Below are positions 892-50,070 of a stretch of 50,078 bases of DNA, piece by piece. Position numbers and translations under genes: made by a program. Under the pieces are notes generated by a model. That model was not told the origin of the DNA and did not search any database. It was given only the letters and a program-made list of their open reading frames with translations. The DNA is from a phage, in the sequence record NC_107631.1, one strand, 5' to 3'. Positions within the stretch are counted from its first letter, which is position 1, and every line of letters begins with the position of its first letter.

Positions 892-950
892 AAAACGCGT
901 GTACCATTGGCGGTGTATCATTTACACCGTCAACTAAGGAGTTTATTGTG

Positions 951-4481: not shown

Positions 4482-4525
4482 ACTATGCCCGAATCCATTC
4501 GGGCGTTTTTATCAATTAGTGCGAT
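4482..4525 (-). promoter_or_regulatory. dyad-motif middle promoter (degenerate site)
   Basis: TCGCAC-TAA-TTGATAA on minus strand; CATAGT hexamer 28 nt downstream, inside inverted repeat GCCCGAATGGATTCGGGC. Confidence 0.45.
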
Positions 4526-6469: not shown

Positions 6470-6513
6470 ACTATACCCGACTTTCGCCGGGTAGTTTTAG
6501 CAATTAGTGCTGA
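6470..6513 (-). promoter_or_regulatory. dyad-motif middle promoter
   Basis: CAGCAC-TAA-TTGCTAA then TATAGT 28 nt downstream inside inverted repeat ACCCGGCGAAAGTCGGGT. Confidence 0.5.
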
Positions 6514-7492: not shown

Positions 7493-7536
7493 ATAATGCC
7501 AGATTCCATCCCGGCAGTTTTAACAAGAAGTGCTAT
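7493..7536 (-). promoter_or_regulatory. dyad-motif middle promoter upstream of dam
   Basis: ATAGCAC-TTC-TTGTTAA then CATTAT/TATTAT 28 nt downstream. Confidence 0.5.
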
Positions 7537-9977: not shown

Positions 9978-10006
9978 TTGAATCGTTGTAACGTTTACGC
10001 TATAAT
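9978..10006 (+). promoter_or_regulatory. strong sigma70 early promoter for the HTH regulator gene
   Basis: TTGAAT-N17-TATAAT. Confidence 0.6.
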
Positions 10007-10045
10007 ACACGGCATACAGTAAACGTTTTTAGCAAAAAGTGCTAT
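10002..10045 (-). promoter_or_regulatory. dyad-motif promoter driving the helicase operon, overlapping the divergent early promoter
   Basis: Dyad TTAGCAA-AAA-GTGCTAT (ATAGCAC-TTT-TTGCTAA on minus) with TATTAT 28 nt downstream on the minus strand; the same dyad lies in the 5'UTR of the plus-strand transcript. Confidence 0.5.
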
Positions 10046-10057
10046 AGGAGAATTAAG

Positions 10058-10510
10058 ATGAGTATTCAACGTATCGCAGAGTCAACTGGTGAAATCGATA
10101 AACGTCACATCAATGGTAACAACGGAACACGACGCGGTAAAGATAAAAAGCCACGACAGCGCTGCGGATTCTATATTCATAAAGAAGAAACACGCGCAGG
10201 ATTGCGAGCACGACTTGATGCGCTTATCGAATATTATGGTGGCCCTGCGGCCTGCGCAAAGGCTCTAAAAGTTAGCAATCAGACGGTGCAAGGCTGGAAA
10301 GAACGCAATATGATTTCATGGCAAGGTGCTGAAGCTGCGCATCGTGCTTACCGCCGACAGGGGTGTAAAGGGTTTAGGGCCGCATGGTTGCGATTCGACC
10401 TGAAGTTTGACGGTAACGGCAAGTGCATTGAGAAGCGATGCAAGAACAAGAAGTTTATGCGAGTGGTGAAGAAGGAAGATATCGGGACGACCAATAGCAT
10501 TTTTAGTTAA
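10058..10510 (+). CDS. HTH DNA-binding protein, candidate transcriptional regulator
   Basis: Cro/C1-type HTH signature (AKALKVSNQTVQGW); basic protein; RBS AGGAG. Confidence 0.6.
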   Translation: MSIQRIAESTGEIDKRHINGNNGTRRGKDKKPRQRCGFYIHKEETRAGLRARLDALIEYYGGPAACAKALKVSNQTVQGWKERNMISWQGAEAAHRAYRRQGCKGFRAAWLRFDLKFDGNGKCIEKRCKNKKFMRVVKKEDIGTTNSIFS

Positions 10511-10517
10511 AACAAAC

Positions 10518-10556
10518 GACGCGTAGCGGGTTAATATCCTTCTACGCGTTTTTTAT
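10518..10556 (+). terminator. intrinsic terminator
   Basis: GACGCGTAG-loop-CTACGCGT followed by TTTTTTATTTT. Confidence 0.7.
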
Positions 10557-11564: not shown

Positions 11565-11570
11565 CTGTGC

Positions 11571-11587
11571 TTAGCAATTCGTGCTAT
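11571..11587 (+). promoter_or_regulatory. dyad element in 5'UTR next to RBS
   Basis: TTAGCAA-TTC-GTGCTAT, 6 nt before AAGGAG. Confidence 0.6.
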
Positions 11588-14612: not shown

Positions 14613-14686
14613 CTTTACTTCTCCTGATTGGTGTATGAGGTGCATTATAACACCTCATTAATTATTTGTTTAGCTATTTGTGCCGT

Positions 14687-27640: not shown

Positions 27641-27657
27641 ATAGCACTTTTTGTTAA
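27641..27657 (-). promoter_or_regulatory. dyad element immediately upstream of RBS
   Basis: TTAACAA-AAA-GTGCTAT on the coding strand, directly abutting CAACCAATCAGGAG. Confidence 0.5.
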
Positions 27658-27700
27658 AAGTTAAGTGAATAAAGTTGATAGGATGATTTTACAGAAATGA

Positions 27701-31400: not shown

Positions 31401-31429
31401 ATAATAGCACTTTTTGTTAAAGCGTCAAA
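31401..31429 (-). promoter_or_regulatory. sigma70 promoter with embedded dyad element, upstream of the major capsid gene
   Basis: On minus strand TTTGAC-N17-TATTAT with TG extension; the spacer contains TTAACAA-AAA-GTGCTAT; followed by hairpin AAGCCGTG..CACGGCTT and T-run. Confidence 0.5.
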
Positions 31430-34639: not shown

Positions 34640-35939
34640 CTTCTAACTTCTCCCCTAATCCCGGTTCCGGCTCGGTTGTTTCTTCCGGTTCGCGAATGTT
34701 GATGTTATTACCATCCTTGAGTTTGAACTCAGGGGCAATGGATCGCAACGTGTCGCGAGCTTCTTCCAGATCGATGATTTGCTCAGTGATAGCCTTCGTT
34801 ACTGACTCAACGTTATTCTTCGTGATCTCTGATTCCTCTTTCTTACTCGGAACAGACAAAGGCTCAAACTCGATCGACCACTCTTCCTCATCAACAATGA
34901 ACGGCAACAAGAACTCAAGAAGCGGCCTGTAATCTTCCTCGCGCTTGCGATCGACTAGCTTATAGAAAGTCTCAAGTGCTGTGTTTTGGCTCGCTGATAC
35001 GCCGCCTACGTTCTTATTCTTGATGATAATCTCATGAATCCCGGATAGGGAGACGATGCGGTCCATCTTGCTTGATAAGAACTCAGGAACTCCGCTGATA
35101 TCAGAGTTGAGAACGTCATATTCCTCAGTCTCAGCATCGATACCGATCGCACGGCCTACGCCGGAGTTATCATCAACCTGAGCAAGTCTCAGTCGCGCGG
35201 CATACTGAGCATCATCATCATCACACATTTCAGCAAGACCTTTGACCTTCCATACAGCCTGTTGCTTACGTCGCAAGATCTGAGTAGCCAGAGATTCACA
35301 GTAATCATAGTCACAGATTGCATCAATCAGTGACTTGTTCAATACCGAAGCTCCCCATCCTTGATTCTGCTTTCTTGCCTGTTGCGTTACTCGTTCACCA
35401 TCAGCAATAAAGACTCTTGAGTGATGAATCAGATACGGCTGCATATTGTCGCCAGGGGATACCTTGTAAATTTCAGGCTCACCATAGCGAGGAGATCTTG
35501 CATTGGTGACTCGCTTTTCAACAGTGATAGCAAATCGATCGTAAACTCGGACGCCTTCAAGTTTAGCTCCAGGCTTTGCCTGACTGGTTAACATCCGGTT
35601 GTCGTTGATGATTGCCACCATCGCCGCGCCACCGTAAAGTCGCGCCCAACAAAGAAGATCCACCAGACTTGAATCAAGTTTGTAGCTATCCCATAAAGAC
35701 TTGAACTCTTTTTCATCCTTAACGCCTGACATTTTAAAACCAGCCGTCACCATCTCTTCCGGGATAACATCCACAATTCGCTTCGCGGTTGCGTTGTCGT
35801 TGTAGAAAGAACCGACGTGATATGATGCATCAGACATAAAGAATGGCTTAGGCGATCCGTCCGCGCCGCCGTTAAAGATATCGTTATATCCATCATGCTT
35901 AACAATTTTCATGTTTCCTCCAATAAAAAGGGCCGTCAA
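34629..35939 (-). CDS. portal protein
   Basis: 436 aa immediately downstream of the large terminase; acidic C-terminus. Confidence 0.7.
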   Translation of the reverse strand: MTALFIGGNMKIVKHDGYNDIFNGGADGSPKPFFMSDASYHVGSFYNDNATAKRIVDVIPEEMVTAGFKMSGVKDEKEFKSLWDSYKLDSSLVDLLCWARLYGGAAMVAIINDNRMLTSQAKPGAKLEGVRVYDRFAITVEKRVTNARSPRYGEPEIYKVSPGDNMQPYLIHHSRVFIADGERVTQQARKQNQGWGASVLNKSLIDAICDYDYCESLATQILRRKQQAVWKVKGLAEMCDDDDAQYAARLRLAQVDDNSGVGRAIGIDAETEEYDVLNSDISGVPEFLSSKMDRIVSLSGIHEIIIKNKNVGGVSASQNTALETFYKLVDRKREEDYRPLLEFLLPFIVDEEEWSIEFEPLSVPSKKEESEITKNNVESVTKAITEQIIDLEEARDTLRSIAPEFKLKDGNNINIREPEETTEPEPGLGEKLEDEN

Positions 35940-35966
35940 TTGACAGCCCTAATTATATCTCATTTA

Positions 35967-37535
35967 TTACCGCTTAACCATCCCGGCGAGTCGCTTCATT
36001 CTCTCGATAGGATCATCAATGGTCAGCAATTCGATGTTCGCCGCATCCATGAAGTTATCGACGATATCATCATGCGGGTGGGTGTCATCGTAAGTAAAGG
36101 CGCTATGTTCTGCGATGATTTCCGCAAGCATAGGGTGCTCTTCTGGAAGAACCACGCGACCAGCCTTAATGACTGGCTGAGCATCCATCGCTCGGGTAAC
36201 TTTATCCTTGTTACGCTGCAATGGAGTGATAGAGATCGGAGTCTTCTTCCTGAGATTCTGGATTAAGCCCGTACCGCTTGCTTTGTCTTCCACGTAGATT
36301 TTACGAAGCACGCCCATTGATTTATTGTGCCTCCATGCCTGATTGACGAAAGCTGTAAATTGCCTCTCCATATCCGGCGCTTCCCACTTTCCGCGAATGC
36401 CGTCGATAAAGTAAACCTTATCATTCTTCTTGCCCCACAAACAAAATACCGTGTAGTCGTTTAGCTCGCCTGTCTTCTGAGCGGTATCGGCAGTGATGAA
36501 TCGGTAATCATATTTACCCGGATCTGGCTCGTCAGCGTCAAGACTGCTGCCGTAATAAGTCCACCACTCTGAGTTAAACACTGAGCCACCCAGCGCGATC
36601 GGTTTCTGCTGATACTGAGAATCAAAGGTATACTGATCTGCTTCTCGTAACGCTAACAGGTCGTGAACGCTTTCCTTGCTGGGCCAAAAAGAGTAATGCT
36701 TAACGCCATCCAATTCTACATACTCAGACGATAAAACATCACGCTCAAAGTAAGGCTGCAACCAATCAGGAAGCGTCTTTCCGTATTCTTCAGTAACCAG
36801 CGCCGGGATTGAGATTTGGTCAAACTCAATACCCATCCCGCCATTCATCATGAACCAGGTTGAATCCTGAGCATGCAGTCGTTGCTGAATTGCAATAATA
36901 GGCGTCTCGTTATGCATACGACGGGATCGAATGGTGTTTTTCAATAGCATGTGCGTACGCTCACGCTTAACCTTTGAGAACATATCATCAGGCTTGTCGA
37001 TATCGTCGAGCATTACCATCCCTGAGAATCCCGGCATCATGTAGCCACCACGCGAACCAGTAATACGACCGCCAGCCGCTGCGGATATCAACTCAAACCA
37101 AACCTTTCCGTCACTATTCAGAACCTGAATCTCTTCGTCTTTAGATGTGCCGAACTTGCAGGGCCATAGCTCCTGGAATTCGTTGCTGCTGATAATCTCA
37201 CGAACGCGCTTACTGTTACGCTTCACCAGGCTGTCGGCAAACGACACGTTAAGGTTACGAATCTTTTTACACTTAAGCATTGCGTACACCGGGAGGTGGA
37301 TTGAGAATATCTCAGTTTTTGATGATCCTGGCGTTACGTTAAAGATGGTGTTACCGCGACGACCCGCAACAATCTCTTCAGCCTCATGACACAAGTAAAT
37401 GTGATGCCAGTTCATTGAGTATTTTTGCGCCTGCATAATCTGGAACCATGCCCTAATCATTCCAGAGAAGCTTGCCTCAGATATTTTCTTTATAGCCAGC
37501 TTCTCAAGATTGTTTAACTCTTCCCATTGCAACAT
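35967..37535 (-). CDS. terminase large subunit
   Basis: 522 aa; ATPase-like N-terminus and nuclease-like C-terminus (..FITADTA..DYTVFCLWG..); followed by portal. Confidence 0.85.
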   Translation of the reverse strand: MLQWEELNNLEKLAIKKISEASFSGMIRAWFQIMQAQKYSMNWHHIYLCHEAEEIVAGRRGNTIFNVTPGSSKTEIFSIHLPVYAMLKCKKIRNLNVSFADSLVKRNSKRVREIISSNEFQELWPCKFGTSKDEEIQVLNSDGKVWFELISAAAGGRITGSRGGYMMPGFSGMVMLDDIDKPDDMFSKVKRERTHMLLKNTIRSRRMHNETPIIAIQQRLHAQDSTWFMMNGGMGIEFDQISIPALVTEEYGKTLPDWLQPYFERDVLSSEYVELDGVKHYSFWPSKESVHDLLALREADQYTFDSQYQQKPIALGGSVFNSEWWTYYGSSLDADEPDPGKYDYRFITADTAQKTGELNDYTVFCLWGKKNDKVYFIDGIRGKWEAPDMERQFTAFVNQAWRHNKSMGVLRKIYVEDKASGTGLIQNLRKKTPISITPLQRNKDKVTRAMDAQPVIKAGRVVLPEEHPMLAEIIAEHSAFTYDDTHPHDDIVDNFMDAANIELLTIDDPIERMKRLAGMVKR

Positions 37536-38632: not shown

Positions 38633-38649
38633 AAATCCATCCTCTTTGT

Positions 38650-38666
38650 TTAACATTTAGTGCTAT
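38650..38666 (-). promoter_or_regulatory. dyad element just upstream of the putative TerS RBS
   Basis: TTAACAT-TTA-GTGCTAT on plus strand; TGGTAAAAT extended -10-like sequence adjacent on minus strand. Confidence 0.4.
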
Positions 38667-38682
38667 TTTACCATATTGCAGG

Positions 38683-38712
38683 CATAAAAAAACCCGCCGG
38701 AGCGGGTTAGTG
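38683..38712 (-). terminator. intrinsic terminator
   Basis: ACCCGCCGGAGCGGGT hairpin with A7 on plus strand. Confidence 0.55.
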
Positions 38713-38945: not shown

Positions 38946-39131
38946 TTAAATCTCCTTGATTAATTCAATATTTATTTTGTGAGTGTCAAAGTTAGCGCCG
39001 GAAAGTTTTTTTGCTTTCGTGATGGCTTCTGCCTGACTGGTTGCTGATAATTCAGTTTCGAAAGATTGCTTGCACGACTGGCAAAACATTCCCATCTTTC
39101 GAATAATTAATTTAACTTTGAATCGCTTCAT
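38946..39131 (-). CDS. hypothetical small protein
   Basis: 61 aa; contains a C-x-x-C pair. Confidence 0.4.
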   Translation of the reverse strand: MKRFKVKLIIRKMGMFCQSCKQSFETELSATSQAEAITKAKKLSGANFDTHKINIELIKEI

Positions 39132-39871: not shown

Positions 39872-40215
39872 TATTTACCTCTCCCAAATGAAAAATTAAC
39901 ACCTAAAACCTGATTGCAAACCGACTCCATGTATCGCAACTGGTATTGAGCAACCTTTGAAGGACTTAATTCATCGGTAAATAAATCCTCAACATTTATT
40001 TCTTTTTTATGCTTGCGCTTCCATGCCTTGATGATATTTGGCAGGATTCGCTCGCTCTTCCAGGCTGCAAACTCAGATTGATTCGTTGATGCCGGGGTAA
40101 ACTGCCTTTCGATCTGGTTAAGAAGTTCGGCGGCAGCGCCTTTTACGTGAAGCTGTTCACCAATCGTGTCCAAGAGTTCGCGAGCTTGTTTCTCTGACAA
40201 GTTAATCGTAATCAT
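39871..40215 (-). CDS. hypothetical protein
   Basis: 114-aa ORF, translationally coupled. Confidence 0.45.
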   Translation of the reverse strand: MITINLSEKQARELLDTIGEQLHVKGAAAELLNQIERQFTPASTNQSEFAAWKSERILPNIIKAWKRKHKKEINVEDLFTDELSPSKVAQYQLRYMESVCNQVLGVNFSFGRGK

Positions 40216-40421
40216 GCCTCTTCTCCTTCTTCTTCGATCGGGGTAAAGAACTGCGTTTTAGTTTCCTGGTTGTAATAAACACCTTCGTCATAATCGCTTT
40301 CTTTTACTGCGATAAAAACATCACAGCCGTCATGCATAAAGTCGCCGCTGTCAGTTTCAATCAGCTCGAATATCTCAGAAGTTTTAGTGCAAGTGAAAAA
40401 CTTATCAGTTGATACCATCAT
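40212..40421 (-). CDS. hypothetical acidic small protein
   Basis: 69 aa; preceded by a dyad-motif promoter cassette. Confidence 0.45.
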   Translation of the reverse strand: MMVSTDKFFTCTKTSEIFELIETDSGDFMHDGCDVFIAVKESDYDEGVYYNQETKTQFFTPIEEEGEEA

Positions 40422-40453
40422 TTTGATTTTCTCTCTTCGTTGTCGATGAGGTA

Positions 40454-40497
40454 ACTATATCAAATCACCCCATCGACGTTTTAGCAATTCGTGCTAT
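40454..40497 (-). promoter_or_regulatory. dyad-motif middle promoter
   Basis: ATAGCAC-GAA-TTGCTAA; TGaTATAGT extended -10 28 nt downstream inside inverted repeat GTCGATG..CATCGAC. Confidence 0.55.
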
Positions 40498-41066
40498 TTA
40501 TTGATGAACGTGGCGGCTATGTGCTGAGCGGTAATTTCTGGATGGCCTTCGACAGAAAAGAAGTCACATTCCTGATAACCGTTGACCCCAATCATATCGT
40601 CCAGGTAGATATAGTCTCGACTGTCATTATCGAAGTTGCAACCGTTGCGATGTATTCGACATAGCTTTACCTGGATATCACCTTCAATCATCTGCAATAT
40701 TTCATCTTTGAATCCACCATCAGTAAATACCGAAAGGGAGTGAGACTCTTTCACCTTGCTTTCCGCTCGCATACCGAAGAAGCGATTTCCGAACTGCGGC
40801 TTGATGACTTCCTCGCTAATCCAGATCATAAACTGGCGAGGGCTTTTACCGTTCAGGATTGATGCTGGCTCTTCTTTATATCGACGGTCCTCATACAAGA
40901 ACATGAAATACTCGTAGTTAGCTTCACCCAGGATTGCCCGGGCAATCTCAAACATTGGCGCTTTGAAGCTGCGCAAGGCTACGTGATCGTAAGTGTCAGC
41001 CAGGATGCATCCGATAGTGTCTTTTCCCGCGCCAGGTGCGCCGTTTAAAATGATAGCTGTTTTCAT
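40494..41066 (-). CDS. P-loop kinase, polynucleotide kinase-like
   Basis: Walker A ILNGAPGAGKDT resembling the T4 Pnk N-terminal kinase domain; AGGGAG RBS. Confidence 0.55.
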   Translation of the reverse strand: MKTAIILNGAPGAGKDTIGCILADTYDHVALRSFKAPMFEIARAILGEANYEYFMFLYEDRRYKEEPASILNGKSPRQFMIWISEEVIKPQFGNRFFGMRAESKVKESHSLSVFTDGGFKDEILQMIEGDIQVKLCRIHRNGCNFDNDSRDYIYLDDMIGVNGYQECDFFSVEGHPEITAQHIAATFINK

Positions 41067-41708: not shown

Positions 41709-41748
41709 GATTTATTCCTCTGATTGGTTGCTTAACTCAACGAAGGGC

Positions 41749-41792
41749 ATTCTAACAAATACCCTTGAGCAAGTTTTAGCAATTCGTGCTAT
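41749..41792 (-). promoter_or_regulatory. dyad-motif middle promoter
   Basis: ATAGCAC-GAA-TTGCTAA then TGtTAGAAT 28 nt downstream inside inverted repeat AAGGG..CCCTT. Confidence 0.55.
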
Positions 41793-42286
41793 TACCAGTA
41801 ATCAACCTCGTAGTCAGCCCAGGCGTCAAAATCACTTTGGCAGAATGTTCCGCTATAATTTTCCATCATTTCATCGATCAGGAAGTAGCATGACTCACCG
41901 TTACGATAGAAGTATGAATCAGCAACGTTACGCGCCCATCGCCCGGCATCTTTCTTGCTCATCTTCCAGTGTTTCATTGCAATTTTCTTGAATGCGCGAA
42001 CAACGCGTTTGCGGATCTTGACATGCTTGTACACCGCATTGCAGCCGTAGGCCATATATTCGTTATTTCCAAGATTCTGCATGATGTAAGGATTAACCTC
42101 TTTCGATGTGATTTCCAGATCGCCATCATCCAGCTTGTCATCTTGAATCTTAGCTGTAATGTAGTGACCTTTGAACATACCTAAGCCATGCAGAGTGTAC
42201 TCGTCGTTAGGTGCTTCAATACAGATTAGGTGTTTCATTCGTGCTTCCTCTTTTGTTGGTGTAGGGGAATCATAGCGCATTCCCAT
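41792..42286 (-). CDS. hypothetical protein
   Basis: 164-aa ORF with Trp/Tyr-rich C-terminus. Confidence 0.5.
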   Translation of the reverse strand: MGMRYDSPTPTKEEARMKHLICIEAPNDEYTLHGLGMFKGHYITAKIQDDKLDDGDLEITSKEVNPYIMQNLGNNEYMAYGCNAVYKHVKIRKRVVRAFKKIAMKHWKMSKKDAGRWARNVADSYFYRNGESCYFLIDEMMENYSGTFCQSDFDAWADYEVDYW

Positions 42287-42312
42287 TGATAGGTTTTAGC
42301 AATTCGTGCTAT
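42269..42312 (-). promoter_or_regulatory. dyad-motif middle promoter
   Basis: ATAGCAC-GAA-TTGCTAA then TATGAT 28 nt downstream inside inverted repeat GGGAAT..ATTCCC. Confidence 0.55.
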
Positions 42313-43802: not shown

Positions 43803-43842
43803 AGCTGATTCCTCTGATTGGTTGCCATGCTTCAATAAGGCC

Positions 43843-43886
43843 ACTATATCAAATGGCCTTGCGGAAGGTTTAGCAATTCGTGCTAT
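43843..43886 (-). promoter_or_regulatory. dyad-motif middle promoter (cassette family B)
   Basis: ATAGCAC-GAA-TTGCTAA then TGaTATAGT 28 nt downstream inside inverted repeat GGCCA..TGGCC. Confidence 0.55.
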
Positions 43887-44435: not shown

Positions 44436-44465
44436 AATGACTTCCTCTTAGTGGTCGATGCGGGG

Positions 44466-44509
44466 ATTATACCAGTCAGGACAAATCCCCTTTTAACAAT
44501 TCGTGCTAT
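44466..44509 (-). promoter_or_regulatory. dyad-motif middle promoter
   Basis: ATAGCAC-GAA-TTGTTAA then TGgTATAAT 28 nt downstream inside inverted repeat GGGGATT..AATCCCC. Confidence 0.6.
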
Positions 44510-44976
44510 TTGGTAAGATACTTCACGTTACTACCAGCAACCTCATTCCAGCCGTCATCAAAGAACACGCTGTAGCACGTTGCTGAGCGCTGTCGAATCT
44601 TCGATACGGTTCGCCACACTTTACGCCCCGAGTAACCAGTCAGCACACGCATCCCTGGCAATAACTCACCCGACTTTCTCACCTTAATAGCCACATCAGA
44701 ATCAAGCTCGAACGACTCAAGATAGACCGGGTTAATCATATTCCACATACGGCGCTCTTCGTGCTCATCTGCCCACTCGCAGCCATTGTTCGTCTTGATA
44801 GATCCAATGAAGCAACCCAGTTTTTCAGTAAGTGAGTCTGCGCGGTATGAGTTGATATCGATGACCGTGTAGTGGCTGTACATATGCCAGTGCGATCCGG
44901 TTTTGTGCTCAAACGCGAAGAATGACATTTCGCCATCAATCTCATCTTTAGCCAGAAATACGGTAATTGTCGCCAT
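44506..44976 (-). CDS. hypothetical protein
   Basis: 156-aa ORF. Confidence 0.5.
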   Translation of the reverse strand: MATITVFLAKDEIDGEMSFFAFEHKTGSHWHMYSHYTVIDINSYRADSLTEKLGCFIGSIKTNNGCEWADEHEERRMWNMINPVYLESFELDSDVAIKVRKSGELLPGMRVLTGYSGRKVWRTVSKIRQRSATCYSVFFDDGWNEVAGSNVKYLTK

Positions 44977-44978
44977 GA

Positions 44979-45173
44979 TTAAGCCTCAGCAAAGTAAGTG
45001 TTAAAGCCTTTGAGTTTGTAGTCGCTACCTACGCGCACAACGTTCCAGGCAAGGCCCGAGTGATATGCAACCATATCCTCAAGGTCGATCGTGATTTCGG
45101 TTCCTTTCTTGAACAGACCCTTTTCATGAGTTGAGTCGCGCTGAACAACAACCACATCAATTTGAGTTTCCAT
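44979..45173 (-). CDS. hypothetical small protein
   Basis: Start moved to Met23, preceded by GAGGAAACGAAG, identical to the RBS of the gene at 46658..46828. Confidence 0.45.
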   Translation of the reverse strand: METQIDVVVVQRDSTHEKGLFKKGTEITIDLEDMVAYHSGLAWNVVRVGSDYKLKGFNTYFAEA

Positions 45174-45205
45174 CTTCGTTTCCTCTGTATCGTGTCGATG
45201 AGAAG

Positions 45206-45249
45206 ATAATACCCGATCCGCTCGATCGGGCTTTAACAAAAAGTGCTAT
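45206..45249 (-). promoter_or_regulatory. dyad-motif middle promoter (cassette family A)
   Basis: ATAGCAC-TTT-TTGTTAA then TATTAT 28 nt downstream after inverted repeat CCCGATC..GATCGGG. Confidence 0.55.
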
Positions 45250-46060
45250 TCCATTCGCTAATTTTTGGAGGCTTTACAGATTCAACACAGTTCTTCAATA
45301 TCGCACACCTTTCGGCAAGTATGTCTGATTTGCTGCCACCTTTGGAAAGGCATTGATCTACAGCTTGCTTAACGTCATCAGTATCAATCCACTTATCCTT
45401 GTGGATACTCCTCCTGCAAGCCTCAATTGTCACTACCTTATTTATGGCAAGGTACTTAGGAACGTTGCAAGCCAGGTTAGTGCTATCTGCTGAGTTTAGA
45501 GGGTAGTTACCTAAAACTCTTCCATCAAGCATCCTTAGCCCATGCAGTTTTACCTCAACATTAGATTCCTTAATGGCTGAAAAAGCCTCACTTATCCTTT
45601 GCTTCCACCTGGCGGATCTGACTGTTGCAAATTCTCCAGAAGATCCCATGCATACCCATTCCCATTTTTCACATAGACTTATCAGTCTGCTTATTGGCTC
45701 GTGCATATGCCACACCGGAGCTGCCTTACTCTTTAGATCTGAAGGCAACTGAGATATGAGCTTATCATTATCCTCGGCACTGCCAGTTATGTCATCCGGG
45801 ATAACAAAGAATCTCAATTTTGGGTTGTCAAACCAGTCAGGAAGGAAGTTGCAATAAAACTCTCTCCAGTCTTGATTCTTCCCGCTCTTCCACTTTGAGA
45901 ACGCCCCATTATCTATGCATACAGTGTCAGCCGCATCAAAGGCTAATTTTATCTGATCAGGTCGCTCGAATGATACGAATGCACCGCTTCCACGGTGCGC
46001 GATTCGTGCAATCCTTCCCCTATCTCCCCATATTGGAGATCCGTGAAAGTGAATTGTCAT
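45233..46060 (-). CDS. DpdA-like DNA-guanine transglycosylase (TGT family), putative
   Basis: Local matches to TGT catalytic motifs: CIDNGAFS vs LTDSGGFQ, FVIPDD vs MIFDEC, SADSTNLACNVP vs GIDMFDCVMP; overlaps the start of the transporter-like gene. Confidence 0.5.
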   Translation of the reverse strand: MTIHFHGSPIWGDRGRIARIAHRGSGAFVSFERPDQIKLAFDAADTVCIDNGAFSKWKSGKNQDWREFYCNFLPDWFDNPKLRFFVIPDDITGSAEDNDKLISQLPSDLKSKAAPVWHMHEPISRLISLCEKWEWVCMGSSGEFATVRSARWKQRISEAFSAIKESNVEVKLHGLRMLDGRVLGNYPLNSADSTNLACNVPKYLAINKVVTIEACRRSIHKDKWIDTDDVKQAVDQCLSKGGSKSDILAERCAILKNCVESVKPPKISEWNSTFC

Positions 46061-46536
46061 AGTTTAAATTTCCTCATGATAGCTATGATTATAAATGCGC
46101 CAACTGTCTTAGCTGCGAATTGAGCTAATGAAACATCAATCATTATGCTTCCGAATGCTATCATTGGGAACGCCATAGAGTCAATTGCAGCCGACACTGT
46201 ATTTGCCGGGATTGATTTGCTGTAGAAGTCACCACGCTTCAACTTGAACGTTATGGCGCTACCAGTTCCAGCAAGGATTACTGATGATACTGATGCAACA
46301 GCTATCATTCCTGCACTGGGGTCTATAATCACTGTAGCAATCCCAGCTACAAAGCAAGCTAGCATCGAATACCAGAACCCAAAATTGTGCTGTATCTTGT
46401 CCCTGATAACCATGTCTGCTGATATGATTACGAGTGCATTGATTGGGGTTGACCACACCCCAAAGTACGCTACTGACAGGTTTGCTGCAACATACAGCAA
46501 AACAAATAATACAATCATTACTGATAATTTACGCAT
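46057..46536 (-). CDS. YhhQ/QueT-family (DUF165-like) 7-deazaguanine precursor transporter, putative
   Basis: About 6 predicted transmembrane helices; F-KLKRGDFYSKSIPANTVSAAIDSMAFPMIAF aligns with E. coli YhhQ FNRLRQSRRWWLAPTASTLFGNVSDTLAFFFIAF. Confidence 0.55.
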   Translation of the reverse strand: MRKLSVMIVLFVLLYVAANLSVAYFGVWSTPINALVIISADMVIRDKIQHNFGFWYSMLACFVAGIATVIIDPSAGMIAVASVSSVILAGTGSAITFKLKRGDFYSKSIPANTVSAAIDSMAFPMIAFGSIMIDVSLAQFAAKTVGAFIIIAIMRKFKL

Positions 46537-46657
46537 ACGGCCTCCGTGGAAAAGATTGGTAGGATCTGGATGTTTGGTCTAACCTGCCTGATTCTGCTTA
46601 CGATTGATTCATCACTTAGAGGATAAAACACACCATTTACGAGCCATCCTATCCTAA

Positions 46658-46828
46658 TCATTCGTCGATCTCTCCAATATACTTAGCCTCTTTCCACTGT
46701 GAGTATGCATCTTGCTCGCTGAACCCGTAGCCAGTAAAGCCACCTCCCTGGCACATGAACCGCTTAAATTTCATGATTCCTTTGTAGCTGTCGCCGCGGT
46801 CGGTGATTTTGCATTCTTCGTTAATCAT
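46658..46828 (-). CDS. hypothetical small protein (about 56 aa), not in ORF track
   Basis: ATG preceded by GAGGAAACGAAG; coordinates approximate. Confidence 0.4.
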   Translation of the reverse strand: MINEECKITDRGDSYKGIMKFKRFMCQGGGFTGYGFSEQDAYSQWKEAKYIGEIDE

Positions 46829-46859
46829 CTTCGTTTCCTCGTTCGTTGTCGATGGGATA

Positions 46860-46903
46860 ACTATACCAAGCTATCCCGATCCAGCTTTAACAAAAAGTGC
46901 TAT
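46860..46903 (-). promoter_or_regulatory. dyad-motif middle promoter (cassette family A)
   Basis: ATAGCAC-TTT-TTGTTAA then TGgTATAGT 28 nt downstream inside inverted repeat GGGATA..TATCCC. Confidence 0.55.
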
Positions 46904-49331: not shown

Positions 49332-49471
49332 TTTATGTTCACACCTTTTATACAGGAAAGTTTAACAGCGTAAAAAATGTTCGCGTTTACGATAGTCACC
49401 AAAAAGCAATGATGCAGAGAGTAGTGCTAGGAGGAACAATCAAAGAGTGCAAAGTAATCTCTGAGTACTGA
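49328..49471 (+). CDS. hypothetical very small protein, not in ORF track
   Basis: ATG overlapping the previous stop (ATGA); coordinates approximate. Confidence 0.25.
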   Translation: MIYVHTFYTGKFNSVKNVRVYDSHQKAMMQRVVLGGTIKECKVISEY

Positions 49472-49515
49472 TAGCACAAATTGCTAAAGACACACACCGG
49501 GGAGTGAGTTATATT
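49471..49515 (+). promoter_or_regulatory. dyad-motif promoter
   Basis: ATAGCAC-AAA-TTGCTAA then TTATAT(T) 28-29 nt downstream inside inverted repeat GGGAGT..ACTCCC. Confidence 0.5.
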
Positions 49516-49548
49516 ACTCCCACACCAAACGAAACAAAGGAATCAAAA

Positions 49549-49990: not shown

Positions 49991-50034
49991 ATAGCACGAT
50001 TTGTTAATATTGCCGTAAGGTCATTTGATAAAGT
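49991..50034 (+). promoter_or_regulatory. dyad-motif promoter (cassette family B)
   Basis: ATAGCAC-GAT-TTGTTAA then TGaTAAAGT 28 nt downstream inside inverted repeat; the whole cassette is near-identical to the one at 43803..43886. Confidence 0.55.
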
Positions 50035-50070
50035 GGCCTTATTCAAGATAACCAATCAGGAGTTAACACC

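Follow-up and report, generated by a model that had tools for sequence, protein, structure and literature searches.

Inverted repeats in the promoters of a T1-like phage as candidate RNA stem-loops of a composite promoter cassette

At positions 40454-40480 of the window, by which we mean the whole 50,078-bp stretch of DNA analyzed here, the first-pass annotation described a short inverted repeat enclosing the -10 hexamer of a promoter of a 'dyad' type, and stated that every promoter of this type carries such a repeat with arms that differ between loci. The question raised by this locus is what such repeats are for, and whether they act as DNA or as RNA. The window is the nearly complete genome of a T1-like siphovirus (Tunavirus, Drexlerviridae); its 38-43 kb region is 92% identical to phage DELF2 and is related to 123 phage records, and the genes around 40454-40480 lie on the minus strand. 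T1-like phages are common laboratory contaminants and therapy candidates whose transcription program is essentially unmapped; our literature search found no transcript maps of T1-like phages, and Rfam gave no matches in the window. The focal promoter (40442-40497, minus strand) and the gene that it serves are composed of the following features.

40478-40497, minus strand: upstream promoter box ATAGCACGAATTGCTAAAAC (-50 to -31), the 'dyad' of the first-pass annotation, resembling a MarA/SoxS/Rob marbox
40454-40459, minus strand: -10 hexamer TATAGT, extended by a TG at 40461-40462 and placed exactly 20 nt after the 18-mer box
40442-40477, minus strand: focal stem-loop, with the 5' arm at 40463-40477, the loop at 40457-40462 and the 3' arm at 40442-40456
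40212-40421, minus strand: downstream ORF of 69 amino acids, served by the focal promoter

Read along the minus strand from 40497 to 40419, the 18-mer box ATAGCACGAATTGCTAAA (40480-40497) is followed by 20 nt, the hexamer TATAGT (40454-40459), TACCTC, the A at 40447, TCGACAACGAAGAGAGA and the ATG of the downstream ORF, about 8 nt 5' of which lies a Shine-Dalgarno-like GAGAGA. We infer from the hexamer that the A at 40447 is the start of transcription. The interval 40454-40480 corresponds to the -10 plus the spacer, and the TAG at 40494-40496 within the box is the stop codon of the upstream ORF (40494-41066). The arms GUCGAUGGGGUGAUU and AGUUACCUCAUCGAC form a stem of 15 bp, including G.U pairs, with a 6-nt loop, and this stem covers the spacer, the -10, the discriminator and +1 to +6; the first-pass annotation gave arms of 4-9 bp, which describes most of the other stems (6-9 bp) and falls short of the focal one. 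The sense strand of the focal site folds at -26.7 kcal/mol (z = -6.6; none of 200 shuffles equals it), and the antisense strand at only -16.5 because several of the focal pairs are G.U. The focal orthologues differ from one another by changes between G.U and A-U.

The box is present in the window in 14 copies at no more than three mismatches to the 18-mer (0.09 expected) and in 23 copies with a looser consensus. When -34 to +14 is folded for every copy, 16 of the 23 have a stem, which encloses or overlaps the -10 in 12 cases and lies wholly within the spacer, ending at -13, in four (4508-, 6496-, 7519- and 45232-); the remaining seven (6164-, 11570-, 27641+, 31404+, 38649-, 47912+ and 48117+) yield no significant stem on folding. 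All four repeats quoted by the first-pass annotation are present (GGCCA..TGGCC at 43839-43858, GGGATA..TATCCC at 46854-46877, GGGGATT..AATCCCC at 44462-44490 and GGGAAT..ATTCCC at 42265-42284). That the inverted repeats exist, and well in excess of chance, is confirmed, but they had been over-generalized: they are not a property of every promoter with the box, and flanking of the -10 describes the 12 stems that reach it and not the four confined to the spacer. Beyond the focal site, the stem-loops are as follows.

907-933, plus strand: stem-loop UUGGCGGUG..CACCGUCAA around -10 TATCAT; box 878-895
4487-4504, minus strand: spacer-only stem-loop CCCGAAU..AUUCGGG ending at -13; box 4508-4525
6474-6493, minus strand: spacer-only stem-loop CCCGGC-GAAA-GUCGGG ending at -13, GNRA-type in its loop and containing a G.U pair; box 6496-6513
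7497-7516, minus strand: weaker spacer-only stem-loop with G.U pairs; box 7519-7536
10514-10554, plus strand: stem-loop ACGCGUAG..CUACGCGU around -10 TAATAT, then TTTTTTATTTT; box 10494-10511
14635-14658, minus strand: stem-loop GAGGUG..CACCUC around the -10-like TTATAAT; degenerate box 14669-14686
41731-41773, minus strand: stem-loop around -10 TAGAAT, core AGGGUA/UGCCCU with one U.G pair, where phage T1 has G-C; box 41775-41792
42265-42284, minus strand: stem-loop GGGAAU..AUUCCC overlapping -10 TATGAT; box 42295-42312
43830-43867, minus strand: stem-loop AAGGCCAUU..AGUGGCCUU with an outer 4-bp helix, around -10 TATAGT, a member of covarying family A2; box 43869-43886
44462-44490, minus strand: stem-loop GGGGAUU..AAUCCCC overlapping -10 TATAAT; box 44492-44509
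45211-45231, minus strand: spacer-only stem-loop CCCGAUC..GAUCGGG ending at -13, before -10 TATTAT, flagged as terminator-like; box 45232-45249
46851-46881, minus strand: stem-loop GGGAUAGCU..AGUUAUCCC around the -10; box 46886-46903
49500-49521, plus strand: stem-loop GGGGAGUG..UACUCCC around -10 TTATAT/TATATT; box 49471-49488
50008-50050, plus strand: stem-loop AAGGUCA..UGGCCUU whose U.G pair can form only on the plus (sense) strand; box 49991-50008

Several boxes have surroundings of their own. The box at 38649-38666 (minus strand) lies directly before the small-terminase gene, with no -10 and with a Shine-Dalgarno sequence 4 nt past the box; a strong separate terminator (38691-38708, minus strand) lies 25 nt 5' of it, and the layout is conserved in T1 (8362). 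This box could be a roadblock or a remnant. Two perfect boxes without a stem-loop, 27641-27658 and 31404-31421 (both plus strand), are antisense within late structural genes and are conserved across genera (T1 18833- and 15069-; TLS 15025-). A -10-like TAGGAT accompanies the first, which points towards the terminator hairpin of the major tail gene; both may drive short antisense RNAs. The box at 11570-11587 (minus strand) ends in AAG, has no -10 at the standard distance and is followed about 50 nt on by a strong terminator, AAAAAACCGCCCAAAGGCGGTT, an arrangement conserved in T1 (34902) and Rtp (33762).

To place these promoters in a family we used phages T1, TLS and Rtp together with 80 T1-like IMG/VR loci anchored on the polynucleotide kinase gene; a degenerate 14-base box pattern run on IMG/VR returned mostly unrelated contigs and was replaced by these protein-anchored loci. 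The family set holds 855 boxes, 785 of them with a -10-like hexamer, which begins exactly 20 nt past the 18-mer in 711. Its 518 unique promoter sequences form 164 clusters, and the cluster representatives are the 164 non-redundant promoters used below. The mean minimum free energy of their -32 to +10 regions is -12.0 kcal/mol. Permuting the columns among promoters gives -6.0 (standard deviation of the mean 0.18), and shuffling gives -5.5. Given that column permutation preserves the G-rich spacer and the C-rich discriminator, the excess folding reflects complementarity specific to each locus. A stem with at least five Watson-Crick pairs is found in 151 of the 164 promoters; in a classification by position, 107 promoters have a stem that extends at least into the -10, 40 have one that stops at about -13, and 17 are without a stem.

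Covariation points the same way. Within clusters, 30 double changes leave the pair intact, compared with 2-5 when the partner column is slid by 1-3 positions. A family of 30 sequences, which includes the window promoters 43869- and 49991+ and whose members were chosen without reference to the 3' arm, has 96.2% of its cells paired (83.2% in shuffles and at most 50% with slid partners). Six of its pairs have changed on both sides, giving 52 double-change cells, a number reached by none of 500 shuffles, and one pair takes six types (CG, GC, AU, UA, GU and UG). RNAalifold independently predicts the identical 9-bp stem. The proposal that structure rather than sequence is under selection is thus borne out, both by compensatory changes among related promoters, for which a covariation check across related phages had been suggested, and by the loss of half the folding energy on permutation; orthologous promoters do retain compensatory pairing. 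These two results also make it highly improbable that the repeats are a non-functional by-product, either of G-rich spacer and C-rich discriminator composition or of recombination that left scars of mobile cassettes, a reading that draws on the location of cassettes at mosaic breakpoints and on a discriminator that is C-rich even where unpaired. Its C fraction is much alike whether or not it forms part of a stem (0.50 and 0.47); stems often use the discriminator as their 3' arm, as had been noted, but its C-richness is a feature of the family.

The pairing is also strand-specific. With a single-stem scoring that treats G.T and A.C alike, and with mismatches counted only where two Watson-Crick pairs stand on either side, we find 33 internal G.T and 9 A.C mismatches in the stems (p = 2.7e-4), divided 24:9 in stems that reach the -10 and 9:0 in spacer-only stems; column-permuted sequences give 242:314, so that composition leans the opposite way. 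An earlier count based on the union of sense and antisense folds was dropped because G/U-rich helices of the antisense 5'-UTR had entered it spuriously. Of 163 promoters compared, 111 fold more stably on the sense than on the antisense strand. The tolerance of G.T, but not of A.C, means that selection acts on pairing in the transcribed-sense strand, whichever of the two DNA strands carries the genes (e.g. 49991+), and this speaks against both a symmetric cruciform and a duplex protein site. Two-fold symmetry close to the core promoter is what a binding site for a second, dimeric protein factor would offer, but the arms differ between loci, six pair types occur at one position, the center of symmetry shifts from about -22 to -8, and no motif is shared beyond the -10. 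We consider such a site, which the first-pass annotation had listed among the possible roles, the least probable of the readings discussed here.

Whether a promoter has a stem depends on what lies upstream of it. We assigned internal and leading classes by hand from the annotations of four complete genomes, the orthologues among which are not independent: promoters directly after a co-directional gene fold at a mean of -13.3 kcal/mol (n = 60), and leading promoters, in divergent or terminal intergenic regions, at a mean of -6.7 kcal/mol (n = 10, p = 1.6e-4 versus internal), which is about the permuted null of -6.3 +/- 0.3. Antisense orphan boxes inside late genes likewise average -6.7 kcal/mol (n = 5). 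The exceptions are 10 of the 60 internal promoters, which are weaker than -8 kcal/mol, and one leading promoter with a 9-bp repeat (9990-10027). A cruder, ORF-based test gives a trend in the same direction; its upstream-context classes were too noisy, many early genes being shorter than 50 codons, and the annotation-based classes were used instead. Stems at internal and not at leading promoters fit an RNA that acts on read-through transcripts, given that a promoter-intrinsic role in DNA predicts them at both.

The exceptional leading promoter is that of the helicase operon (9990-10027, minus strand). Whereas the stems elsewhere are GC-rich, its repeat is rich in AT, a perfect palindrome AACGTTTAC-N17-GTAAACGTT with a counterpart in T1 (36444). 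Divergent from the operon, ORF 10058-10510 (plus strand) encodes a Cro-like helix-turn-helix protein (Pfam P22_Cro, E = 4e-5, below the curated cutoff), for which the palindrome may be the operator.

The same results bear on a role at the level of DNA, in which a cruciform or a hairpin in the non-template strand would present or occlude the -10 and so make the promoter respond to supercoiling or to a factor. In 12 window promoters the -10 is within the loop or beside it, and G.T is the least destabilizing DNA mismatch, so that the tolerance of G.T is compatible also with a hairpin in single-stranded non-template DNA. A symmetric cruciform, however, predicts no asymmetry between G.T and A.C, and the -10 lies outside the structure in 40 of 147 stems; moreover, the leading promoters of the same family would need the element equally and have, on average, no more folding than the null. 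Arms of 6-9 bp with loops of 5-15 nt, which are the dimensions of these stems, are poor cruciform formers. We therefore regard the cruciform proposed by the first-pass annotation as unsupported and a DNA-level element in general as very unlikely. Hairpin promoters are known for the phage N4 virion RNA polymerase, and there too a short inverted repeat is tied to a promoter. The N4 hairpins have a conserved sequence, stems of 5-7 bp and loops of 3 nt and are read as DNA by a phage RNA polymerase, whereas the T1-like arms vary, the loops are long and the stem is on average absent from leading promoters; no RNA polymerase gene is reported for the TLS phage group in the TLS paper.

The anatomy of the family suggests why the stem lies within the promoter. 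The consensus is AATAGCACwwwTTGyTAAAa (-51 to -32), a G at -14 (87%), TATaaT, a C-rich discriminator and A(+1)TCgAAAC, so that the order of a cassette is the box, a spacer of 18-20 nt, the -10, the discriminator, A(+1)UCGAAACGAA, the Shine-Dalgarno sequence and the ATG, the last two about 30-40 nt past the -10. The upstream stop codon (TAG or TAA) lies inside the box at 40494, 42296, 44506 and 45233 and overlaps the first base of the box at 41792; the spacer and the discriminator are therefore the sole free positions between the genes, which places the stem within the promoter. Spacer-only stems fill the spacer (37 of 40 end at -12/-13), and stems that reach the -10 most commonly end at -1, with many running to +2 to +9; most stems are 6-9 bp with loops of 5-15 nt (median loops 5-11 nt). 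This flexibility of position fits a structure that needs only to exist somewhere in the gap. The beginning of the transcript, A(+1)TCGAAACGAA (+1 to +12; e.g. 40436-40447, minus strand), is conserved even where the genes downstream are unrelated and may be a start-site or 5'-UTR signal; it sometimes forms the outer 3' arm of the stem (GTCGATG..CATCGAC).

Two other readings of the promoter were rejected. A start site 5' of the stem would have to use TAAAAC, the sole -10-like string in the box, which is without the essential final T. TTGCTA as a -35 would lie at a spacing of 22 bp in every member, and no hexamer is conserved at 17 bp. A standard -35/-10 scan misses the box promoters (26 found and 26.8 expected, no enrichment).

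From these observations we posit that the stem-loops are written into sequence-neutral positions of a compact promoter cassette. RNA polymerase starting at the cassette would begin just 3' of the stem or within its 3' arm; the transcript of the cassette itself could then not form the full stem, and the hairpin would form only in RNA read through from the upstream gene. There it would mark the end of the upstream unit, as an attenuator, a terminator or a barrier to 3' exonucleases, and would insulate tandem co-oriented units from each other. We think it somewhat probable that the repeats are RNA stem-loops acting in this manner on read-through transcripts, in a cassette that closes the upstream transcription unit and resembles the promoter-early stem-loop (PeSL) cassettes of T4-type phages. 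Of the roles offered by the first-pass annotation, the hairpin in read-through transcripts is the one favored by the G.T/A.C asymmetry and by the dependence on a co-directional upstream gene. The read-through RNA and the start site are things that we infer from sequence, as is the exact role of the hairpin (termination, stabilization or processing).

With respect to termination, a GC-rich stem just past a gene end is a feature shared with rho-independent terminators, but most of the T1-like stems have no U-tract and overlap a promoter that looks functional. In the 8 nt that follow the stem, T occurs on average 1.0 times where the stem reaches the -10 (five or more T in 6%) and 2.95 times where it is confined to the spacer (five or more in 12%). 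Most stems are therefore unlikely to act by canonical intrinsic termination. The exceptions are 10514-10554 in the window and a few sites in T1, TLS and Rtp. The stem at 10514-10554, between the gene of the Cro-like regulator and the primase gene, is followed by a long T-run and is kept in three genera (T1 35930-35971, an annotated terminator; TLS 35223); it is a true intrinsic terminator superimposed on a promoter. Spacer-only stems might use the -10 as a U-tract, as is weakly suggested by an enrichment of TATTAT (p = 0.017), with a T count that is low. In the T1 genome record, the spacer-only stems at 38973-39001, 39998-40024 and 41980-42007 are annotated as rho-independent ('transcripton') terminators, the first two being the orthologues of 7497-7516 and 6474-6493, respectively.

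The hairpin could instead be an RNA processing site, at which the stem guides an endonuclease such as RNase III or RNase E to its own 3' base, where cleavage gives the downstream mRNA a 5' end that mimics the primary transcript, or a protective 5' hairpin. The 3' arms of stems reaching the -10 often end near the predicted start, most frequently at -1, the focal stem has 15 bp and several others have stacked outer helices, and the strand asymmetry and the context dependence fit this reading equally well. We nevertheless judge processing to be unlikely: at 6-9 bp, most stems fall short of the usual length of an RNase III substrate, the spacer-only stems stop at -13 rather than at the start site, and no conserved cleavage motif is evident. 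Another kind of intercistronic hairpin is the REP-type stabilizer (e.g. malE-malF), a sense-strand stem-loop between co-transcribed genes that can block 3' exonucleases without termination. Unlike these, the T1-like hairpins are embedded in promoters.

Returning to the preferred reading, a read-through hairpin at the end of the upstream unit, the best description that the sequence affords is a PeSL-like composite cassette, i.e. a candidate marbox-type promoter carrying a stem-loop, with the same insulating logic as the PeSL cassettes. The latter occur in the T4-type phages RB49/phi1, PST and nt-1 and mediate modular shuffling; terminator/attenuator activity and the formation of mini-circles were shown for them, and one PeSL stem reduced read-through as rrnB T1 does (Arbiol et al. 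2010, PMC2839356; Comeau et al. 2014, PMC4122927). Both kinds of cassette have a locus-specific stem-loop, rich in G on one side and C on the other, that lies between the upstream element and the -10 or overlaps the -10, with G-T pairs on the sense strand; both are bounded by an upstream stop and a downstream Shine-Dalgarno sequence and ATG, are repeated (23 boxes in the window) and lie at the edges of gene modules that differ between relatives. They differ in that the phage families are unrelated and without sequence homology, and in the promoter itself: PeSLs have a consensus sigma-70 promoter with -35 and -10 at 16-18 bp, whereas the T1-like TTGNTA lies 22 bp from the -10, as part of a 20-bp marbox-like element 18 bp from the -10, and there is no -35 at 17 bp.

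The homology blocks that the window shares with T1 and three relatives end at 41792, 43886/7, 44507, 45254 and 46904/5. The corresponding box edges lie at 41792, 43886, 44509, 45249 and 46903, so that homology breaks within 5 nt of the upstream edge of a box. The 2.3-kb module 44508-46824, composed of five ORFs, is replaced in T1, and the cassettes, each of about 80 bp, match their paralogs at 79-94% identity. These breakpoints are consistent with a modular exchange mediated by the cassettes.

The upstream box, ATAGCACnnnTTGnTAAA, was labeled a 'dyad' by the first-pass annotation, a label that is probably wrong given that the element matches the asymmetric MarA/SoxS/Rob marbox, at consensus grade and in class II geometry. 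A PWM was built from 85 Salmonella ChIP-seq sites (consensus GCACTAATTGCTAAA), and hits were graded against the scores of those real sites themselves. The window gives 21 hits that reach the 75th percentile, with 0.57 expected, and 10 that reach the 90th, with 0.04 expected. The focal box, with a score of 17.3, exceeds the 90th percentile; box 6496- has exactly the sequence of the ChIP consensus, and box 49471+ that of a SoxS site on pSLT. The hits number 20 in T1, 21 in TLS and 14 in Rtp, and in each genome 12-15 boxes are followed by a -10 hexamer at a distance of exactly 20 nt. The marbox-like boxes noted in the window are listed by their low coordinates.

878, 4508, 6496, 7519, 10028, 40480, 41775 and 42295: marbox-like boxes
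43869, 44492, 45232, 46886, 47912, 49471, 49991: marbox-like boxes, continued

The box is in forward orientation (GCAC..AAA towards the -10), its 15-mer core spans -47 to -33 from the predicted start with the center at about -40/-41, and it overlaps the -35 position; there is no -35 hexamer, and the -10 is good. In sequence match, orientation, center and missing -35, these promoters resemble class II MarA/SoxS/Rob(/RamA) promoters such as micF (PMC10268841, PMC12052159, PMC8811837). Unlike those cellular promoters, the phage box occurs 14-21 times per ~50-kb genome at consensus strength, and the phage promoters carry spacer hairpins, which are unreported for cellular class II promoters. A search with approximate query sequences found no phage-encoded MarA/SoxS homolog among the 541 six-frame ORFs of the window (best E = 0.88), so that host Rob, MarA or SoxS are the candidate activators; the literature search found no published link between MarA/SoxS/Rob and T1-like phages. 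The box had been described before, as a '21-nt direct repeat aaATAGCACnnnTTGnTAAAA' of TLS, T1, Rtp and Rogue1; the 2024 TLS re-annotation left its function open between stoperator, enhancer and UP element and made no mention of hairpins. We hypothesize, with the chances about evenly balanced, that some 15-20 consensus-strength class II marboxes per genome drive most early and middle genes of T1-like phages (Drexlerviridae), that host Rob, MarA or SoxS (RamA in Klebsiella and Salmonella) activate them, and that the internal promoters carry an insulating RNA hairpin in the spacer.

If the marbox reading is true, it would explain the conserved 'direct repeat' of the TLS re-annotation and would tie phage development to the antibiotic, bile and oxidative-stress regulon. 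The growth of a whole phage family would then be under the control of the same host stress regulators that make bacteria tolerant of antibiotics. The promoter-embedded repeats would, if our reading of them holds, be RNA-level boundaries between tandem units and a second, independent occurrence of the PeSL design. They would illustrate that promoter spacers and discriminators can hold a second, overlapping code for RNA structure, and the presence of the cassettes at mosaic breakpoints would imply a role in the modular shuffling of these genomes.
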